Positions 18-5,722 of a DNA stretch of 6,018 nt are shown here, piece after piece; position 1 is the first letter of the stretch, and each line of letters begins with the position of its first letter. The stretch covers positions 1 to 6,018 of the forward strand of contig CAIWXP010000071.1 in the NCBI GenBank assembly GCA_903916665.1, written 5' to 3'. The stretch is from Candidatus Iainarchaeum sp. Lineage in GTDB: Archaea; Iainarchaeota; Iainarchaeia; Iainarchaeales; 0-14-0-20-30-16. The notes beneath the pieces were generated by a model. The model was not told the origin of the DNA. It searched no databases and saw nothing but the letters and a program-made list of their open reading frames with translations. The position numbers and the translations under genes were made by a program.

Positions 18-47
18 TATAGTAATATAGTAAGTAAATAATAAATG
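18..47 (+). promoter_or_regulatory. Upstream tandem octamer (TATAGTAA)x2 followed by GTAA, and a TAAATG start context for ORF 45-1364
   Basis: TATAGTAA occurs at 18-25 and again at 26-33, a perfect tandem. TAAATG lies at 42-47 and overlaps the start codon. It resembles the poxvirus-type late initiator, but its information content is low in AT-rich DNA. Only 44 nt of upstream sequence is in the window. Confidence 0.25.
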
Positions 48-1364
48 AAATTAACAAAACATAGTCAATTATTAATGTCATTTTTCCTAAAAAAAAAATG
101 TATTGAACCATCTAATTTAACAAAAAAAACAGAAAAAATATTAACATCATTATATTATGATATTCTTGAAGCAAATAAATATATTGATTCAACTAAAAAA
201 AAGATGGGATCTAAGTTTTATAAATTACAAACAAATGAAATACATAGTATTACACAAATACCAAAACCAACAATGTTTCCGAATGATAGTTTTCCAAAAG
301 AAGTAAGAGAACATATTAATGATAATACAAATAATCATTTAACATATAATTTTTCTCTCTTTGATCGTTTAATTAAATTTCATTTTGTAATTGAAGATTC
401 TAATCTTGAAATACAAATTGAAAAATATAATAAATATGTGGATATTATGTTAACCTGGATGTATATATTAAATCAATATGCATCCAAATCTTGTTCAAAA
501 GAAATTACAGTTTATTTATATTTTACAGAATTATTAAAAAAATTACCTGATACAAATATTCAAATATTAGGAAGTAATCATGTGAATACTGCTTTTACTA
601 CAACTTGTCCAAAAGTATCTGAAATTGTTATATTTCGTAAAGAAGAATGGTTTAAAGTATTTATGCACGAAACATTTCATAATTTTGCATTAGATTTTTC
701 TAATATGAATAATGATGAATGTACTAAAAATATTTTGAATATTTTTCCAGTAAAATCAGATGTAAATTTATATGAAGCTTATGCTGAATTTTGGGCTGAA
801 ATAATGAATGTTTGTTTTTGTAGTTTTATGGAAATGTCTCGTAATGATGATATTCATAAAAATCAACAAAATATAGATAATTTTATTGTTCATTGTGAAA
901 TATTTATTAATTTTGAAAGAACGTATAGTTTTTTTCAAATGGTAAAAGCTTTGGGTTTTATGGGACTTTCTTATAAAGATTTATATTCAATGACACCACA
1001 AAGTATTATATTGAGAGAAAATTTATATAAAGAAGATAGTAACATTTTGTCTTATTATGTTATTAAACTTGTATTATTAAATAATTATCAAGGGTTTTTG
1101 TCTTGGTGTGATACAAACAATACTTCACTTTTACAATTTAAACAAACAACACAAAATCAAAAAGATTTTTGTACATTTATTGAGAAAAATTATAAAAATA
1201 AACCATTTCTTGAAAGTGTAAAATGCACAGAAAGAATTATTAATTCTGTTAAAGTAGTAAAAGGACAAGAAAAAGTAAAAGGACAAAACAAAATATTATT
1301 AAAAAATGATCAAATTGATTTTATATTGAAAAATATGAGAATGAGTATTTGTGAGTTGGGTTAG
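45..1364 (+). CDS. Putative zinc metallopeptidase, gluzincin-like (HExxH plus downstream ExxAE); otherwise an orphan 439-aa protein
   Basis: Uninterrupted 439-codon ORF with ATG at 45 and TAG at 1362-1364. No competing ORF in the track. HETFH lies at aa 208-212 (nt 666-680). E244 (nt 774-776) lies 32 residues after H212, within LYEAYAEFWAE (E248 at nt 786-788). This is the HExxH plus Glu-on-a-later-helix layout of clan MA(E) gluzincins, comparable to NEGFA in M1 and EFFAE-type motifs in M34/M90. No obvious signal peptide or TM segment by eye. The family cannot be assigned without a profile search. Confidence 0.75.
   Translation: MKLTKHSQLLMSFFLKKKCIEPSNLTKKTEKILTSLYYDILEANKYIDSTKKKMGSKFYKLQTNEIHSITQIPKPTMFPNDSFPKEVREHINDNTNNHLTYNFSLFDRLIKFHFVIEDSNLEIQIEKYNKYVDIMLTWMYILNQYASKSCSKEITVYLYFTELLKKLPDTNIQILGSNHVNTAFTTTCPKVSEIVIFRKEEWFKVFMHETFHNFALDFSNMNNDECTKNILNIFPVKSDVNLYEAYAEFWAEIMNVCFCSFMEMSRNDDIHKNQQNIDNFIVHCEIFINFERTYSFFQMVKALGFMGLSYKDLYSMTPQSIILRENLYKEDSNILSYYVIKLVLLNNYQGFLSWCDTNNTSLLQFKQTTQNQKDFCTFIEKNYKNKPFLESVKCTERIINSVKVVKGQEKVKGQNKILLKNDQIDFILKNMRMSICELG
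666..680 (+). other. HETFH candidate zinc-binding/catalytic motif of ORF 45-1364
   Basis: Codons cac gaa aca ttt cat read directly at 666-680 in the ORF frame. The motif is preceded by a hydrophobic stretch (WFKVFM), as is typical for the active-site helix of zincins. Confidence 0.55.
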
Positions 1365-1380
1365 GTTTGTCATATAATAC

Positions 1381-1394
1381 AATAATATATTATT
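1381..1394 (+). terminator. Perfect 14-bp A/T palindrome AATAATATATTATT, 16 nt after the ORF1 stop; candidate 3'-end hairpin signal
   Basis: The palindrome was verified by hand reverse-complementing. The stem can extend by 3 bp (1378-1380 with 1397-1399) if 1395-1396 bulge. The position fits the mimivirus hairpin rule for mRNA 3'-end formation. It is not a bacterial rho-independent terminator, because it has no GC stem and no T-tract. Confidence 0.4.
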
Positions 1395-1421
1395 ATGTAA
1401 TGAATGTATTATTATGTAATG
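1384..1421. repeat. Tandem 19-mer x2 (AATATATTATTATGTAATG / AATGTATTATTATGTAATG), 18/19 identical
   Basis: Read directly. The units are 1384-1402 and 1403-1421. The shared 15-mer TATTATTATGTAATG lies at 1388-1402 and 1407-1421. Confidence 0.85.
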
Positions 1422-1436
1422 TATATGTGATACATT
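1418..1436. other. Hairpin-capable element with a 7-bp stem (AATGTAT / ATACATT) and a 5-nt loop
   Basis: 1418-1424 pairs with 1430-1436, and the loop is 1425-1429 (ATGTG). It is central in the convergent intergenic region. Confidence 0.3.
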
Positions 1437-1444
1437 GAAATTAT

Positions 1445-1462
1445 TGTATTACGTGTATTACG
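1445..1462. repeat. Perfect tandem 9-mer x2 (TGTATTACG), overlapping the palindrome TATTAC-G-GTAATA (1456-1468)
   Basis: Read directly. The units are 1445-1453 and 1454-1462. This is one of the few CG-containing motifs in the spacer. Confidence 0.85.
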
Positions 1463-1469
1463 GTAATAA

Positions 1470-1481
1470 AATAATATATTA
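1470..1481 (-). terminator. Second copy of AATAATATATTA (contains the 10-bp palindrome TAATATATTA), 8 nt beyond the stop of the minus-strand giant ORF
   Basis: The 12-mer at 1470-1481 is identical to 1381-1392. The 10-bp palindrome at 1472-1481 was verified by hand. It is placed symmetrically to the first copy behind the opposing gene. Confidence 0.3.
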
Positions 1482-1489
1482 ATAAATAT

Positions 1490-4400
1490 TTATACACCTA
1501 CCAAGTTAAATATTCCATTTGGTACAAATGATTTAATAGTAACATCATAAAGATATAATTCTGTAACCCCAAGTTTATTTAACTCCACATTAAAAAATTC
1601 AAAATAATCAACATATATTTTTGTAATTTTATTATTATTTGGATTTGTACCACCATTAGATACATATAAAACACCTGATGCATCAAATGACAATCCATTT
1701 GGACTATATACGCAGGTATTCATATAAGGTTGTATAGAAGACAAATATGGTGTAATTGAAATTTTACTAATTGTATTTGATTTAGCATCACAAGTATATA
1801 TGTAACCATCATTTTTATTTGTAATAAATGTTGGAGGATATGTTAAATTTGTTGATGCTACATAAATTGAATATTGATTAGTTATTAATATTGGTCCTAT
1901 TGTTAAATTAATAGCTGATATTTGATTTGGTAATAATTGTCCCAAAGTATTAGTAAATTGTCCTTGTCCTATATATAAATAAGTATTTCCAATAATAAAT
2001 GGACTTAATGAATGAACAGTGGTTGATAAAGAATTACATACAAATCCTGGAACATATTGTCCTACTGTTATAGACAAAGGATTATATAATGTACCTGCAG
2101 GTAATGATAATACTGTAATATTAGAAGAGTCAGCTATAATAGTATTTGTAGATACATCATATATAAGTGGTATTTGTGTAATAATATAAGTTGGACTTAT
2201 TCCACTTAATAAATATATTATATTTGAACAAGAATCAATAGTCATACTAATTGGATTTGATATTGAAGGATAAAAATTATTATTTACAATAATTTGTCCA
2301 TTAGAATATTGTATTTGACTTATTGATGCTACAACTGGAATTTGAAGATCATTTGGATTAACTGAAATGCCTGTTGTTGTTGACACAGCTATTGCTGTAG
2401 CTAAAGCTGCAGTATTTGTTGCTACTGAATTATGTGTATTCAAAATATAAAAATTATTACTTGAATCATTTACTATATTTGTTGGACCTAAAAGACCTGA
2501 TGATGATGGTACAAAATTATTATAAAGAGGATAAATATCTCCAACATCATTATAATTTACATTTACTAATGAAATAGTATTATTTTGTAAAGGAAAATAA
2601 AATTGTGATAACAAATTATTATATAAAATACCAGTTGGATATGTAGAACCTGGTGTTTGTTTTGCAGTAACAATTATATCATTATTTACCATTTGTTTTG
2701 ATACAATTTGTCCAGTGATTAATGTTAAAACATAAGTATGTGTTGGATCAGGTAATATTATCGGATTTATAAAATGAATAGTAATAGAATTAGAAGTATT
2801 TATTGAAATAAATGATGGATCAACAACTGTATAATCATATACATTAAATATTGTTATTACTTGATTATTTGAAATATCATATGGATTATTAATAGTAAGT
2901 GTATCATCATATGGACCAAGAGTACAACCTGAAAAATCAAAAGATAAATAATATTTATCAATATTTTTAATACCTGACGCACAAACTAATATGGAATTGT
3001 CCATAGAATTGTATTTTATTGTTAATATATATTCAGCAAAACTAACATAATTATTATTAAAAACTACAAGTGTGTGTGTATAATATAAATATGTTATTGG
3101 ATATTCTGTTCTATATAAAACTGATTTAAGATTTGGTGTATTATTATAATTATATTGGGTTATATACATGTAATCATCCGAATCAAAACATATTCCATAA
3201 ACTGTAAAATCATTACTAGATAAAACATTAGGTACTGTAACAAAATTAGTTCCTACTTGAGAAGTTAAATTTATTTTAACAATTTGATTATTTGATAAAT
3301 CACCACCAGTATTAAATCCAACATATAAATTTTCTCCTGCATTATCTATACTTATACAAGAGGGTTTAGTTAACGTATTTGGTCCAAAATATGACCAAAT
3401 ACCGTGTTGATTATCAGTTAATGTAATTTTTACAATTTGTGTCAACGTTATATCAACAATATAAAAGTTACCTAGTAAATCAAATGTCATATCAAATGCA
3501 TCTGTTAATGGTTGTCCTGAATTTGTAATATGAAAAGGTTGAGGTGTAATATAACTAGGTCTTGATAAATCTACAGTATATATTTGTTGATGACCAATAT
3601 TATCATTATTCAATATATATAATAAATTTGTATTTATTGGAGAAATTGCACACGCAACTTGATTATAAATAACCGAATTATTTACAATAATACTAACTGT
3701 ATTATCCAATGTTAATTTATATACAAGACCGTTACCACCATTATTTACACCTAATATATAGACATTTCCTTCTGCATCAATTGTAAGATATGTCGTTGAA
3801 TTAAAACCATTTTGTGTTGAATTATATAATTGAGTATTAATATAAGTGTTTGGTAACGTAACAATAGAATTAGATGGAGTATAAATACCTGTAATACTAT
3901 CTACATTATAAGATTCATTAATATTTGTTAAATATAATGTACTTCCAGAAGTAGTTAAACAAGATGGATTTGTTAAAATAGATCCAGATAAATCATATAT
4001 AAATTCAGATACTGTTCCATTATTTGTTATTATACTAATTTTTTTATCATTTGCATTAGATACAAATAAATCTCCTCTACTATCAAAAACAAGAGAAAAT
4101 GGATTATTTAAAATTGTATTAAATGAATTATTATAAATTGATCCTTGACCAGTATTTCCGATAATATCGGTAACTATAATAATATTATTTGCACCAGAAT
4201 TTGCAATATATAAATTATTTGAAGAGTCAAAAATTAAGTTTGATGGTTGGTTTAAAGTAACTCCTGTAATTGTAAATATACTTCCTACCAAAGAACTTTT
4301 ATTTATTTGTACAATAGTATTTGAAGTATAATTACTTACATAAAAATTAGTAAATGTATTATCAAATGCAATTCCTGATGGATTATTTAATGAAACACCT

Positions 4401-5722
4401 GTGATAGCTAATATTGATCCACTTGCTCCTGGTGTTGTAATTTTAACAACTGTATTTGCACTTGAATTTGTAACATATAAATTATTTGAGGAATCATTAT
4501 CAAATACCATAGCAGTAGGATTATTTAAATTTGAATTATTATAAAAAAGTGTTGCTGGATTTGTTGAACAATTGTAAATAGATCCGTCTATTACATTAGA
4601 TGGATTATTAGGAATTGATTTACTATAAACTGCTGCATATAATACTGGATTAGGAGAAGTATGATCAAAAACTAATGAACTAATTTGATTACTTGAAATA
4701 TCTATTGTAGTTGCAATATTATAAGAATTATCAAGTTGGTATATTAAATTATCACCATCATTATTTAATCCATTTGAATTAAGTGAATTTGTGTAATATA
4801 AATTATTGGAATTATCAAATGTTATTCCATATGGATGAGTTATAAATAAACTTAATGATGTAAAACTATGGGTAACTTGTCCATTTACTATAGAACAAAT
4901 ATAACCTTTGTTTCCTGATGTTGGTCCGCCAAAATTTGTTACATATAATATTTTATAATAATTATCAAATCGTAATGATACTGGTACATCTAATCCTGTA
5001 GCAAATACAGAAATCATAGAACCATCTGAAGACACTTTAATAATATTATTTTCATTTGTATTTGCAATATATAAATTACCAATATTATCAAATGTTATAT
5101 CAGTTGGGCCATTTAAACCTGCAGAATATGGGACAAATATAGATCCTTGTCCAGACGTTGCATTTATTATTGTTGATTTAATAATACAATTATTACCTTG
5201 ATCTGTAATATATAAATTACCAGAATTATCAAAAGCAATGCCTGTAATATAATTCATAGTAACATTACTTATATTAAATTTGGTAAGTTTGCCATTTGAA
5301 TTTATTGTATATATTTGACAAATATTTACACTAACATCTAAATATGCAGTAGATACATATATAGTGGATGAGGTATCAAAGACCATACCGTTTATTCCAC
5401 TAGGTGGAAGATAAACTGAAGATGAATCTATTACATTAATAGCTGTCAATGTATTAGTATATAAATTTAATGTACAAATAAAACCATAATAATTTACTAC
5501 GTATAGATTTGTGAATAATGGGTCAAAATCTAAAAAACCAGGCCTTAATAATCCTAATGGTGACGCATATGGAACAAAATTATTAGAAACAATTCTACCT
5601 GTACTATTTTGTAAATTATAAGTATTAGTATAACTAGGTATTATACTTGTATTTGTATAAGTTATTGAATTTAAATAATCTAATCGGTCTCCACTTGGAT
5701 CTGTTGTTACAGTATAAGACAT
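1490..5722 (-). CDS. Giant (1410 aa) multi-blade NHL-type beta-propeller repeat protein, probably several tandem six-bladed propellers; function unknown
   Basis: Uninterrupted 1410-codon ORF. The ATG is the complement of 5720-5722 and the TAA is the complement of 1490-1492. The motif P-x-x-[IL]-x-[FI]-D-x-x-[GN]-N-[LF]-Y-[IV]-x-[ND]-x-x-x-N-x-[IV]-x-K-[IV] recurs, for example ITGIAFDNSGNLYITDQGNNCIIKS, PTDITFDNIGNLYIANTNENNIIKVS, PTAMVFDNDSSNNLYVTNSSANTVVKIT and PSNLIFDSSNNLYIANSGANNIIIVT. This matches the NHL repeat consensus. No signal peptide or TM helix seen by eye. Confidence 0.9.
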   Translation of the reverse strand: MSYTVTTDPSGDRLDYLNSITYTNTSIIPSYTNTYNLQNSTGRIVSNNFVPYASPLGLLRPGFLDFDPLFTNLYVVNYYGFICTLNLYTNTLTAINVIDSSSVYLPPSGINGMVFDTSSTIYVSTAYLDVSVNICQIYTINSNGKLTKFNISNVTMNYITGIAFDNSGNLYITDQGNNCIIKSTIINATSGQGSIFVPYSAGLNGPTDITFDNIGNLYIANTNENNIIKVSSDGSMISVFATGLDVPVSLRFDNYYKILYVTNFGGPTSGNKGYICSIVNGQVTHSFTSLSLFITHPYGITFDNSNNLYYTNSLNSNGLNNDGDNLIYQLDNSYNIATTIDISSNQISSLVFDHTSPNPVLYAAVYSKSIPNNPSNVIDGSIYNCSTNPATLFYNNSNLNNPTAMVFDNDSSNNLYVTNSSANTVVKITTPGASGSILAITGVSLNNPSGIAFDNTFTNFYVSNYTSNTIVQINKSSLVGSIFTITGVTLNQPSNLIFDSSNNLYIANSGANNIIIVTDIIGNTGQGSIYNNSFNTILNNPFSLVFDSRGDLFVSNANDKKISIITNNGTVSEFIYDLSGSILTNPSCLTTSGSTLYLTNINESYNVDSITGIYTPSNSIVTLPNTYINTQLYNSTQNGFNSTTYLTIDAEGNVYILGVNNGGNGLVYKLTLDNTVSIIVNNSVIYNQVACAISPINTNLLYILNNDNIGHQQIYTVDLSRPSYITPQPFHITNSGQPLTDAFDMTFDLLGNFYIVDITLTQIVKITLTDNQHGIWSYFGPNTLTKPSCISIDNAGENLYVGFNTGGDLSNNQIVKINLTSQVGTNFVTVPNVLSSNDFTVYGICFDSDDYMYITQYNYNNTPNLKSVLYRTEYPITYLYYTHTLVVFNNNYVSFAEYILTIKYNSMDNSILVCASGIKNIDKYYLSFDFSGCTLGPYDDTLTINNPYDISNNQVITIFNVYDYTVVDPSFISINTSNSITIHFINPIILPDPTHTYVLTLITGQIVSKQMVNNDIIVTAKQTPGSTYPTGILYNNLLSQFYFPLQNNTISLVNVNYNDVGDIYPLYNNFVPSSSGLLGPTNIVNDSSNNFYILNTHNSVATNTAALATAIAVSTTTGISVNPNDLQIPVVASISQIQYSNGQIIVNNNFYPSISNPISMTIDSCSNIIYLLSGISPTYIITQIPLIYDVSTNTIIADSSNITVLSLPAGTLYNPLSITVGQYVPGFVCNSLSTTVHSLSPFIIGNTYLYIGQGQFTNTLGQLLPNQISAINLTIGPILITNQYSIYVASTNLTYPPTFITNKNDGYIYTCDAKSNTISKISITPYLSSIQPYMNTCVYSPNGLSFDASGVLYVSNGGTNPNNNKITKIYVDYFEFFNVELNKLGVTELYLYDVTIKSFVPNGIFNLVGV
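1493..2497 (-). other. C-terminal degenerate propeller-like region (aa ~1076-1410)
   Basis: Weaker blade cores are present: GPTNIVNDSSNNFYILNT, NPISMTIDSCSNIIYLLS and TNKNDGYIYTCDAKSNTISKIS. One canonical blade lies near the C-terminus: SPNGLSFDASGVLYVSNGGTNPNNNKITKIY. Confidence 0.45.
2498..3112 (-). other. Central non-NHL beta-rich module (aa ~871-1075), possibly an Ig-like (IPT/TIG-like) domain
   Basis: The blade periodicity stops here. The segment YTVVDPSFISINTSNSITIHFINPIILPDPTHTYVLTLITGQIVSKQMVNNDIIVTAKQTPGS has the alternating pattern and P-x-[IF]-x-S-[IV] ... [IV]-T-[IV] start typical of Ig-like beta-sandwich domains. This rests on pattern resemblance only. Confidence 0.35.
3113..5554 (-). 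other. N-terminal NHL-like blade array (aa ~57-870), about 17 blades
   Basis: Hand-indexed [FI]-D blade cores at aa 65, 115, 164, 211, 252, 302, 352, 407, 453, 498, 546, 648, 747, 792 and 846. Two degenerate blades lie near aa 590 and 694. Mean spacing is about 49 aa (about 147 nt). Seventeen to eighteen blades would fit three six-bladed propellers, which is inference. Confidence 0.7.

Follow-up and report, generated by a model that had tools for sequence, protein, structure and literature searches.

Beta-propellers built from NHL-type blades are known from the sensor of PknD (PDB 1rwi/1rwl) and from the Pizza designs, which carry the motif x-P-x-G-[IV]-x-[FV]-D-x-x-G-N-[LI]-Y-[VI]-x-D-x-x-N-x-[IV]-x-K. 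Blades of the same type are found in a protein of 1410 amino acids (aa) encoded on contig CAIWXP010000071.1 (assembly GCA_903916665.1, deposited as Candidatus Iainarchaeum sp.). The whole stretch analysed, 6,018 nucleotides (nt), is called the window here, and the 1410-aa product the propeller protein. PknD carries one regular propeller on a transmembrane kinase, whereas the propeller protein is predicted to have four in one chain and has no kinase domain, transmembrane segment or signal peptide. Most of its blades are far more diverged than those of PknD, and its N-terminal, mid and tail modules are specific to its own family. We consider the chances about even that it is a protein of an uncultivated giant virus with a binding or structural, and not an enzymatic, role, built from four propellers and most likely located on the exterior of the virion.

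The best overall structural matches are the ectodomains of LRP4, LRP5/6 and LRP2, extracellular ligand-binding scaffolds in which six-bladed propellers are strung on one chain. The LRPs consist of YWTD (LDL-receptor class B) repeats with a Cys-rich EGF domain after each propeller, whereas the propeller protein has no YWTD motif, no EGF domain and 15 Cys in all, and therefore does not belong to the LDL-receptor class B family. Pfam likewise gave no match to Ldl_recept_b or EGF. Identity to the LRPs is 12-15%, and the template modelling (TM) score is about 0.2, so the geometry between propellers differs. Bacterial multi-NHL, YncE-like and YvrE-like surface proteins, with long chains of NHL/SBBP/SGL-type blades, are the nearest matches outside the family. 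They add Ig, FN3, cadherin-like, PEP-CTERM or secretion-sorting domains (Pfam), are about 22-28% identical to the propeller protein over parts of its length, and are without the N-terminus, mid module and tail of the viral family. YncE itself is a single seven-bladed propeller.

Among viral surface proteins, the GMC-oxidoreductase fibrils of Mimivirus, collagen-like proteins and fibre-head proteins (Marseilleviridae, virophages) resemble the propeller protein only in the external attachment role proposed for it, and they have no relation to it in sequence or fold. A literature search found no giant-virus virion surface protein that is built from propellers. The Satyrvirus 'NHL repeat containing protein' (262 aa) is of viral origin and has the same single-propeller fold (TMt 0.71), but it has one propeller, is 13% identical and is not orthologous. 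None of the isolate proteins in BFVD has a four-propeller architecture at detectable sequence identity.

Blade repeat in the propeller protein

The propeller gene is complete and lies at 1490..5722 (-), as given in the list of open reading frames (ORFs); it starts with ATG, and the coordinates include the stop codon. The G+C content is ~24% throughout the window, and an Rfam scan of the window found no RNA family. The protein is rich in Asn (13.5%), Ile (11.1%), Ser (10.9%) and Thr (10.6%), and charged residues are scarce (Lys 2.0%, Glu 0.7%, Arg 0.5%). It has no transmembrane segment (the highest 19-aa Kyte-Doolittle mean is 1.35), and a sequence scan found no signal peptide or hydrophobic N-terminus.

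A repeat hidden Markov model (HMM) was seeded on six clear blades and iterated inside the 1410-aa protein. Blades were matched with E-values as low as 1e-17, and they start at aa 63, 109, 155, 203, 247 and 293 in propeller 1, at aa 345, 399, 445, 489, 537 and 582 in propeller 2, and at aa 641, 697, 739, 783 and 842 in propeller 3. Past a gap, C-terminal matches start at aa 1045, 1079, 1154, 1247, 1297 and 1340. The six-seed HMM without iteration found 12 blades in the real protein, compared with a mean of 0.1 and a maximum of 1 in 200 shuffled sequences. The 18 blades across aa 61-935 correspond to 48.6 aa per blade. Because the blades differ in length, fixed-lag autocorrelation of the protein did not reach significance. 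The DNA of the window has no tandem repeat at the blade periodicity; the repeat is seen in the protein only, and the blades are therefore old and diverged. The blade repeat is real and exists at the protein level only.

These results agree with an initial annotation of the window, made from the letters of the DNA alone, which had described NHL-type blades recurring about every 49 aa in a protein rich in Asn, Thr, Ser and Ile and free of a signal peptide and transmembrane segments. All the blade cores listed there (aa 65, 115, 164, 211, 252, 302, 352, 407, 453, 498, 546, 648, 747, 792 and 846) coincide with repeat-HMM matches.

Predicted fold

AlphaFold2 was run on the propeller protein aligned with 40 colinear homologues, in two overlapping pieces. 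Model 1 (aa 1-960) has a mean predicted local distance difference test (pLDDT) of 85.7 and a predicted TM-score (pTM) of 0.83. It consists almost entirely of beta strands, which form 18 four-strand sets in a row. In model 2 (aa 600-1410; mean pLDDT 78.0, pTM 0.56), propeller 3 is seen again, followed by a stretch of weak confidence at aa 929-973, six four-strand sets at aa ~1040-1370 and a beta-hairpin tail. The strand sets of the two models add up to 24 four-stranded blades (18 + 6), which are predicted to form four six-bladed propellers. Propeller 1 (blades 1-6, aa 61-343; 4694..5542 (-)) has six four-strand sets with pLDDT mostly 85-96. Propeller 2 (blades 7-12, aa 344-617; 3872..4693 (-)) also has six, and is matched by the repeat HMM and by Pfam NHL. 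Propeller 3 (blades 13-18, aa 641-935; 2918..3802 (-)) has six four-strand sets in both models. Propeller 4 (aa 1036-1370; 1613..2617 (-)) consists of the irregular blades 19-24, which are strand sets of model 2 with pLDDT about 85-93. The earlier expectation of 20 or more blades in three to four propellers resolves in the models to 24 blades and four propellers. We regard the four-propeller architecture in itself as highly probable.

In a Foldseek search of the PDB, chains of tandem propellers came out on top, with LRP4 first (2.5e-22 over 1018 columns), followed by LRP2/megalin, DDB1, Trm734, BT4663 and LRP6. When model 2 was compared with the six-bladed PknD propeller (1rwl, 254 residues), the TM-score was 0.78 normalised to the target, a value that applies to one matched propeller of model 2 without specifying which. 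Blade counts of 6+6+6+6 together with this score would favour closure of the six-blade ring for at least one propeller.

Sequence profiles tile the chain only partly. The whole protein matches Pfam NHL (PF01436) at 1.2e-11 (44.5 bits, cutoff 20). Propeller 1 alone matches NHL at 1.1e-9 (38.3 bits) and SGL at 3.1e-8, and propeller 2 alone matches NHL with 23.7 bits against the same cutoff of 20. Propeller 3 alone gave just a marginal match to a PknD-derived PDB sequence (E 0.0016). Propeller 4 alone gave no Pfam match, and its last two blades (23-24) matched Pizza7H at 7.2e-11 on aa 1297-1360. Matches to PDB sequences of the PknD NHL sensor domain and its Pizza derivatives range from 1e-17 to 2e-24 and cover only aa ~155-250, and PHROGs gave no meaningful match. 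The prediction that propeller profiles would tile along the length is correct for propellers 1 and 2 but not for propeller 3, where the match is marginal, or propeller 4; the AlphaFold2 models supply the remaining blades.

Non-blade modules and conservation

Conservation was calculated as the majority-residue frequency over 35 aligned full-length members of the family. The protein had been described as a chain of blades. Tandem propellers are indeed predicted, but the N-terminus, the mid module and the tail are not blades, and they are among the most conserved parts. The N-terminal segment (aa 1-60; 5543..5722 (-)) has a conservation of 0.66 and a gap frequency of 0.01. Its family consensus is MSYxVxTDPSG...YQLRN..., with invariant L14, Y22, P29 and Y35, and strands are predicted at aa 19-23 and 35-39. 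The C-terminal beta-hairpin tail (aa 1371-1410; 1493..1612 (-)) is gap-free with a conservation of 0.63, and model 2 places strands at aa 1373-1379, 1385-1393 and 1398-1409. Neither the N-terminal segment nor the tail has a Pfam match. Over the last blades and the 40-aa tail, conservation is 0.63-0.76.

The mid module between propellers 3 and 4 (aa 936-1035; 2618..2917 (-)) is beta-rich with a conservation of 0.70. A profile of 11 members over aa 925-1045 found nothing in PDB or Pfam, the best hit being Big_11 (E 0.012, below the cutoff). In a large protein database, the same profile found, outside the full-length family, only a fragment of a frameshifted family copy. By these profile searches, this module of ~100 aa is specific to the family. 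Most members have three conserved Cys in it (C-N-G-T...F-C-N-N-C-T-Y-N; aa 1000-1020 of the propeller protein), which are lost in the propeller protein and its closest relatives (L-I-T-G-Q...M-V-N-N-D-I-I).

Among the blades, blades 3-4 (aa 151-240) are the best conserved (0.72) and have the strongest NHL matches. Propeller 3 is the most variable propeller in the family (0.48). The linker between propellers 2 and 3 (aa 618-640; 3803..3871 (-)) also has a low conservation of 0.47; it is predicted as a hairpin and a helix (strands at aa 618-623 and 625-634, helix at aa 635-638). Propeller 4 contains an insert (aa 1085-1140; 2303..2470 (-)) with a gap frequency of 0.40-0.65 across the family; it is lineage-specific and missing from most members. 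The helix inside it (aa 1104-1117; residues 505-518 in the numbering of model 2), with the Ala/Thr-rich sequence ATNTAALATAIAVSTT, is the only sizeable helix predicted in the protein.

Homologues and genomic setting

The exact 1410-aa protein was found nowhere but on two short metagenome contigs from ENA. About 45 homologues (1295-1460 aa) are colinear with it over the whole length, with 30-47% identity. Every one of them comes from a metagenome, and they bear at most automatic labels ('YncE', 'YvrE'), so that no close homologue that is already annotated and characterised, which would have lowered the interest of the gene, was found. When the C-terminal 550 aa were searched against 1.84 billion cluster representatives, only 14 clusters had E <= 1e-30, and the family is therefore small and restricted.

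Several homologues lie on contigs of 65-479 kb with ~24% GC. These contigs share a conserved gene order of DUF5871, DUF5765, SWIB, XPG, DnaJ, a DEAD helicase, GT25 and NADAR/OTU, and a rhodopsin gene also occurs. In five diverged loci the slot consists of DUF5871, a 355-aa SAP-domain gene, SWIB, often an epimerase/dehydratase, an XPG nuclease, the propeller gene and a convergent gene of ~420 aa; the NADAR/OTU protein, GT25, DUF5765 and the DEAD-box helicase lie farther from the propeller gene. A scan of IMG/VR with the alignment found four loci, all uncultivated, one of them on a contig named GVMAG, and a scan with the single sequence found no orthologue. Pattern scans found no relative of the family in 185,579 prokaryotic species genomes (GTDB). 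Occurrence on giant-virus-like contigs, and in none of the prokaryotic species genomes scanned, identifies the gene as a giant-virus (Nucleocytoviricota) gene, and the gene content of the homologue contigs bears out the earlier impression of a virus-like genome. The propeller gene is a lineage-specific gene of uncultivated giant viruses. Gene content suggests a placement in the Imitervirales, or Mimiviridae in the broad sense, together with the DUFs near the propeller gene, which we take to occur in Imitervirales. Flanks of 10 kb were read, and the hallmark genes for the major capsid protein and DNA polymerase B lie outside them.

The family also varies in copy number and length. Two tandem paralogues lie on a 479-kb contig (L008; 5464-9765, 1433 aa, and 10001-14215, 1404 aa), and they are 18-34% identical across the first ~1000 aa and 49-75% identical across the last ~400 aa. 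Four members of 1628-1665 aa (P0017, P0024, P0034 and P0256) have about six extra blades before the mid module, which makes five propellers, and their termini are colinear with the others. On a pilon-polished 333-kb contig (L012; 3054-9514 (+)), many short ORFs stand in place of the propeller gene and of the XPG gene beside it, which most likely reflects uncorrected frameshift error rather than pseudogenisation. The substitution pattern among members at least 90% identical to homologue P0001 was uninformative, as nearly all of the 50 variable columns came from the C-terminal end of one shorter member.

Neighbouring genes and spacer

The other gene of the window (45..1364 (+)) is convergent with the propeller gene and encodes a 439-aa protein with an HExxH motif, 63% identical to the product of the 422-aa gene beside P0001. 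A gene of this type holds the same position in L008-L011, and its synteny with the propeller gene extends to every locus examined. The protein is a member of a very large, well-conserved family of giant viruses, with more than 3000 metagenomic homologues at 54-67% identity, and no Pfam, NCBIfam, PHROG or PDB sequence match was found for it. Its invariant H208-E209-x-x-H212 and conserved E244/E248 would fit a zincin-like metalloprotein. The spacer between the two convergent 3' ends (1365..1489 (.), 125 nt) is extremely AT-rich. It contains one tandem repeat of 19 nt (1384-1426) as well as several inverted repeats, among them one with perfect 12-nt arms (1375-1386 / 1440-1451). Hairpin-type 3'-end signals have been described in Mimivirus. 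The inverted repeats of the spacer may be signals of this kind, or may have arisen by chance in such AT-rich DNA.

Genes related to sugar metabolism and transfer occur near the propeller gene in the homologue loci. A NAD-dependent epimerase/dehydratase lies one to three genes upstream in four loci (L008-L011 region). GT25 is present in four loci, and O-FucT, GT92, a nucleotidyltransferase and a GFAT-like gene are each present in single loci, all no more than 10 kb from the propeller gene. The 150-kb contig of L009 has a gene of the bacteriorhodopsin family (22851-23615 (+)), a viral rhodopsin, 8.5 kb downstream from the propeller gene. This is consistent with an aquatic, protist-infecting lineage of giant viruses.

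Discussion

Our data suggest how the propeller protein might function. The chain would run from a conserved N-terminus of 60 aa through three NHL-type propellers, the module of ~100 aa and a fourth propeller to a beta tail of 40 aa. The C-terminal third (module, propeller 4 and tail) would be the constant part, which assembles or anchors the protein, and the three N-terminal propellers would be evolvable ligand-binding surfaces. The protein would sit on the exterior of the virion, where it would decorate the surface or attach to the host, and it could be glycosylated by virus-encoded enzymes. In relatives of Mimivirus, virus-encoded glycogene clusters decorate the virion fibrils (PMC9614988).

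The composition of the family bears on this proposal. Lys, Arg, Asp and Glu together make up 8.1% of the propeller protein and 8.8-14% of the other family members, compared with a median of 24.3% over 138 ORFs from the same loci and 23.5% for the adjacent gene of the window. Nine of the 12 ORFs with the lowest charge in the examined loci are members of the propeller family. Charge depletion is a trait of the family and not of the genome. Proteins that are low in charge, rich in Asn, Ser, Thr and Tyr and all-beta are typical of external structural proteins, and the low charge of the family points in this direction. A constant module joined to diverging and expandable binding domains is the pattern of virion attachment proteins. 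The tandem paralogues of L008 and the five-propeller members show such a pattern, with the constant part at the C-terminus. Together with the charge depletion, the lack of conserved catalytic residues and the sugar genes nearby, it lends indirect support to the surface, fibre or attachment role suggested in the initial annotation. A role at the virion surface, taken alone, seems plausible to us, though we place it somewhat short of an even chance.

Several observations weigh against such a role. The low charge and the nearby sugar genes are circumstantial. N-X-S/T sequons are not enriched over the composition-shuffled expectation (z -2.9 to +0.4), and canonical N-glycosylation was rejected as support because sequon counts are equal to or below the shuffled values. 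The sequence TTTTTCTAAAAGTATAGTAT, with a TCTA core in an AT-rich context, stands directly before the ATG of the propeller gene, and we took this core to be the late motif of CroV. The idea of a late promoter was dropped, as neither TTTTTCTAAAAGTATAGTAT nor any other motif is common to the upstream regions of six homologues, and late expression therefore cannot be argued. The protein has no coiled coil, no recognisable trimerisation or capsid-binding element, no signal peptide and no transmembrane segment. BFVD contains no close orthologue from isolated viruses, and the remote fold matches there are at 8-16% identity. A literature search returned nothing on NHL-repeat proteins in giant viruses, and papers on haptophyte-virus virions and on PelV-1 mention no such protein. 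Ring closure and the geometry between propellers are predicted from the pattern of strands assigned by DSSP, the pTM and the Foldseek matches. In giant viruses, many repeat proteins that are packaged or expressed work inside the cell (PMC5753266).

This last point leads to the alternative that the propeller protein is an intracellular interaction hub, a multi-propeller scaffold that recruits partners in the infected cell or virus factory, as DDB1, WD40 and Kelch proteins do, and is not part of the particle. Foldseek matches to triple-propeller adaptors (DDB1, Trm734) and to propeller proteins of ribosome assembly would agree with a hub, as would a propeller protein that lacks a signal peptide and transmembrane segment, and giant-virus repeat proteins are generally proposed to act in host manipulation (PMC5753266). 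However, the DDB1-type matches have low TM-scores (0.2-0.3) and reflect just the presence of several consecutive propellers, and the blades are of the bacterial PknD/YncE NHL type. A charged-residue content of 8%, at the extreme of the local proteome, is atypical of soluble cytoplasmic hubs, and the gene is single-copy and syntenically fixed rather than part of an expanding multigene family. We consider an intracellular hub unlikely, though still a serious alternative to a surface protein.

A further alternative is that one or more propellers form an enzyme, such as an SGL/SMP-30-type lactonase, a Vgb-type lyase, or a ScyE-like or glycan-degrading protein that could, for example, breach the coat of the host cell. 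Many six-bladed propellers are hydrolases or lyases, and the frequency of these activities in the fold speaks for this possibility. Pfam SGL (PF08450) matches at 2.9e-12 with 47.2 bits (cutoff 26.3), aligning aa 72-262 with profile positions 53-243 of 246. Virginiamycin B lyase (PF24684, Vgb_lyase) reaches 49.9 bits, just under its cutoff of 50, and NCBIfam ScyD/ScyE (NF033206) scores 92.1 against a cutoff of 80, its best stretch being limited to profile positions 1-189 of 333. These matches are a consequence of the common NHL blade motif and reach only parts of propellers 1-2. In the family alignment, none of the propellers has a His, Glu or Cys that attains 90% conservation, which argues against a lactonase- or lyase-type enzyme, and the whole protein contains only 10 Glu, 11 His and 7 Arg. 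We consider an enzymatic role improbable.

The individual enzyme identities were also examined. SMP30-type lactonases hold a Glu/Asn/Asn/Asp metal-binding set in the central channel. The conserved polar residues of the propellers are mainly the structural Asp of the 'FD' blade motif, with some Ser/Thr and a few Lys. The conserved Asp belong to the 'FD'/'TD' blade motif, a reading taken from the motif and not from a position-by-position alignment to a lactonase structure. The identity of an SGL lactonase is disfavoured, since no Glu reaches 90% conservation in any propeller across the family, although the profile score is above its cutoff. That of a Vgb lyase is disfavoured because the score is below the cutoff and the propellers have no conserved His or Glu. 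A ScyE identity was rejected because the match is to a partial profile and to the blade motif only, and the gene lies among giant-virus genes and not in a scytonemin cluster.

That the gene is cellular (bacterial or from a eukaryotic host) and was wrongly assigned to viruses, or that it came recently from bacteria and has no role in the virus, is extremely improbable: its nearest relatives outside the family are bacterial multi-NHL proteins (Verrucomicrobiota and Acidimicrobiales, about 25% identity) and some homologues of the neighbouring genes are deposited under names of bacterial metagenome-assembled genomes, but no member of the family was found in the 185,579 prokaryotic species genomes scanned, IMG/VR and GVMAG contigs carry the gene, it occupies a conserved syntenic slot on AT-rich contigs of 65-479 kb with giant-virus gene content, and 30-47% identity across the family with a conserved architecture indicates long residence in the lineage.

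The architecture of the propeller protein had been regarded as rare. This applies to viruses, for which BFVD has no close orthologue, but not in general, since LRP4 and LRP6 have four and LRP2 has eight tandem six-bladed propellers, and many bacterial multi-NHL proteins of 800-2400 aa are among the weaker homology matches. What is new among viruses is a conserved chain of four NHL propellers that has N-terminal, mid and tail modules of its own. Few chains are known to have four or more propellers in tandem, and the family contributes a viral one. Nothing about the propeller protein overturns current understanding.

Our study indicates that the propeller protein, which is large, syntenically fixed and distinctive in composition, is a concrete candidate for a component of the virion surface or of attachment. 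Host recognition by aquatic giant viruses is little understood, as the majority of lineages have not been cultured and knowledge of surface proteins is limited to a few viruses of amoebae. We tentatively propose, while judging it somewhat unlikely, that the family is a new class of particle-surface proteins of giant viruses, with four (in some lineages five) propellers, docking to the capsid at the C-terminus and reading host ligands with the N-terminal propellers. If the protein is an intracellular scaffold instead, it would still represent one of the larger conserved orphan families of the clade. If the surface class is real, propeller-built proteins would stand beside the known oxidoreductase, collagen-like and fibre-head folds, and the diverging propellers would contribute to determining which hosts are infected by uncultivated Imitervirales of an abundant aquatic clade.

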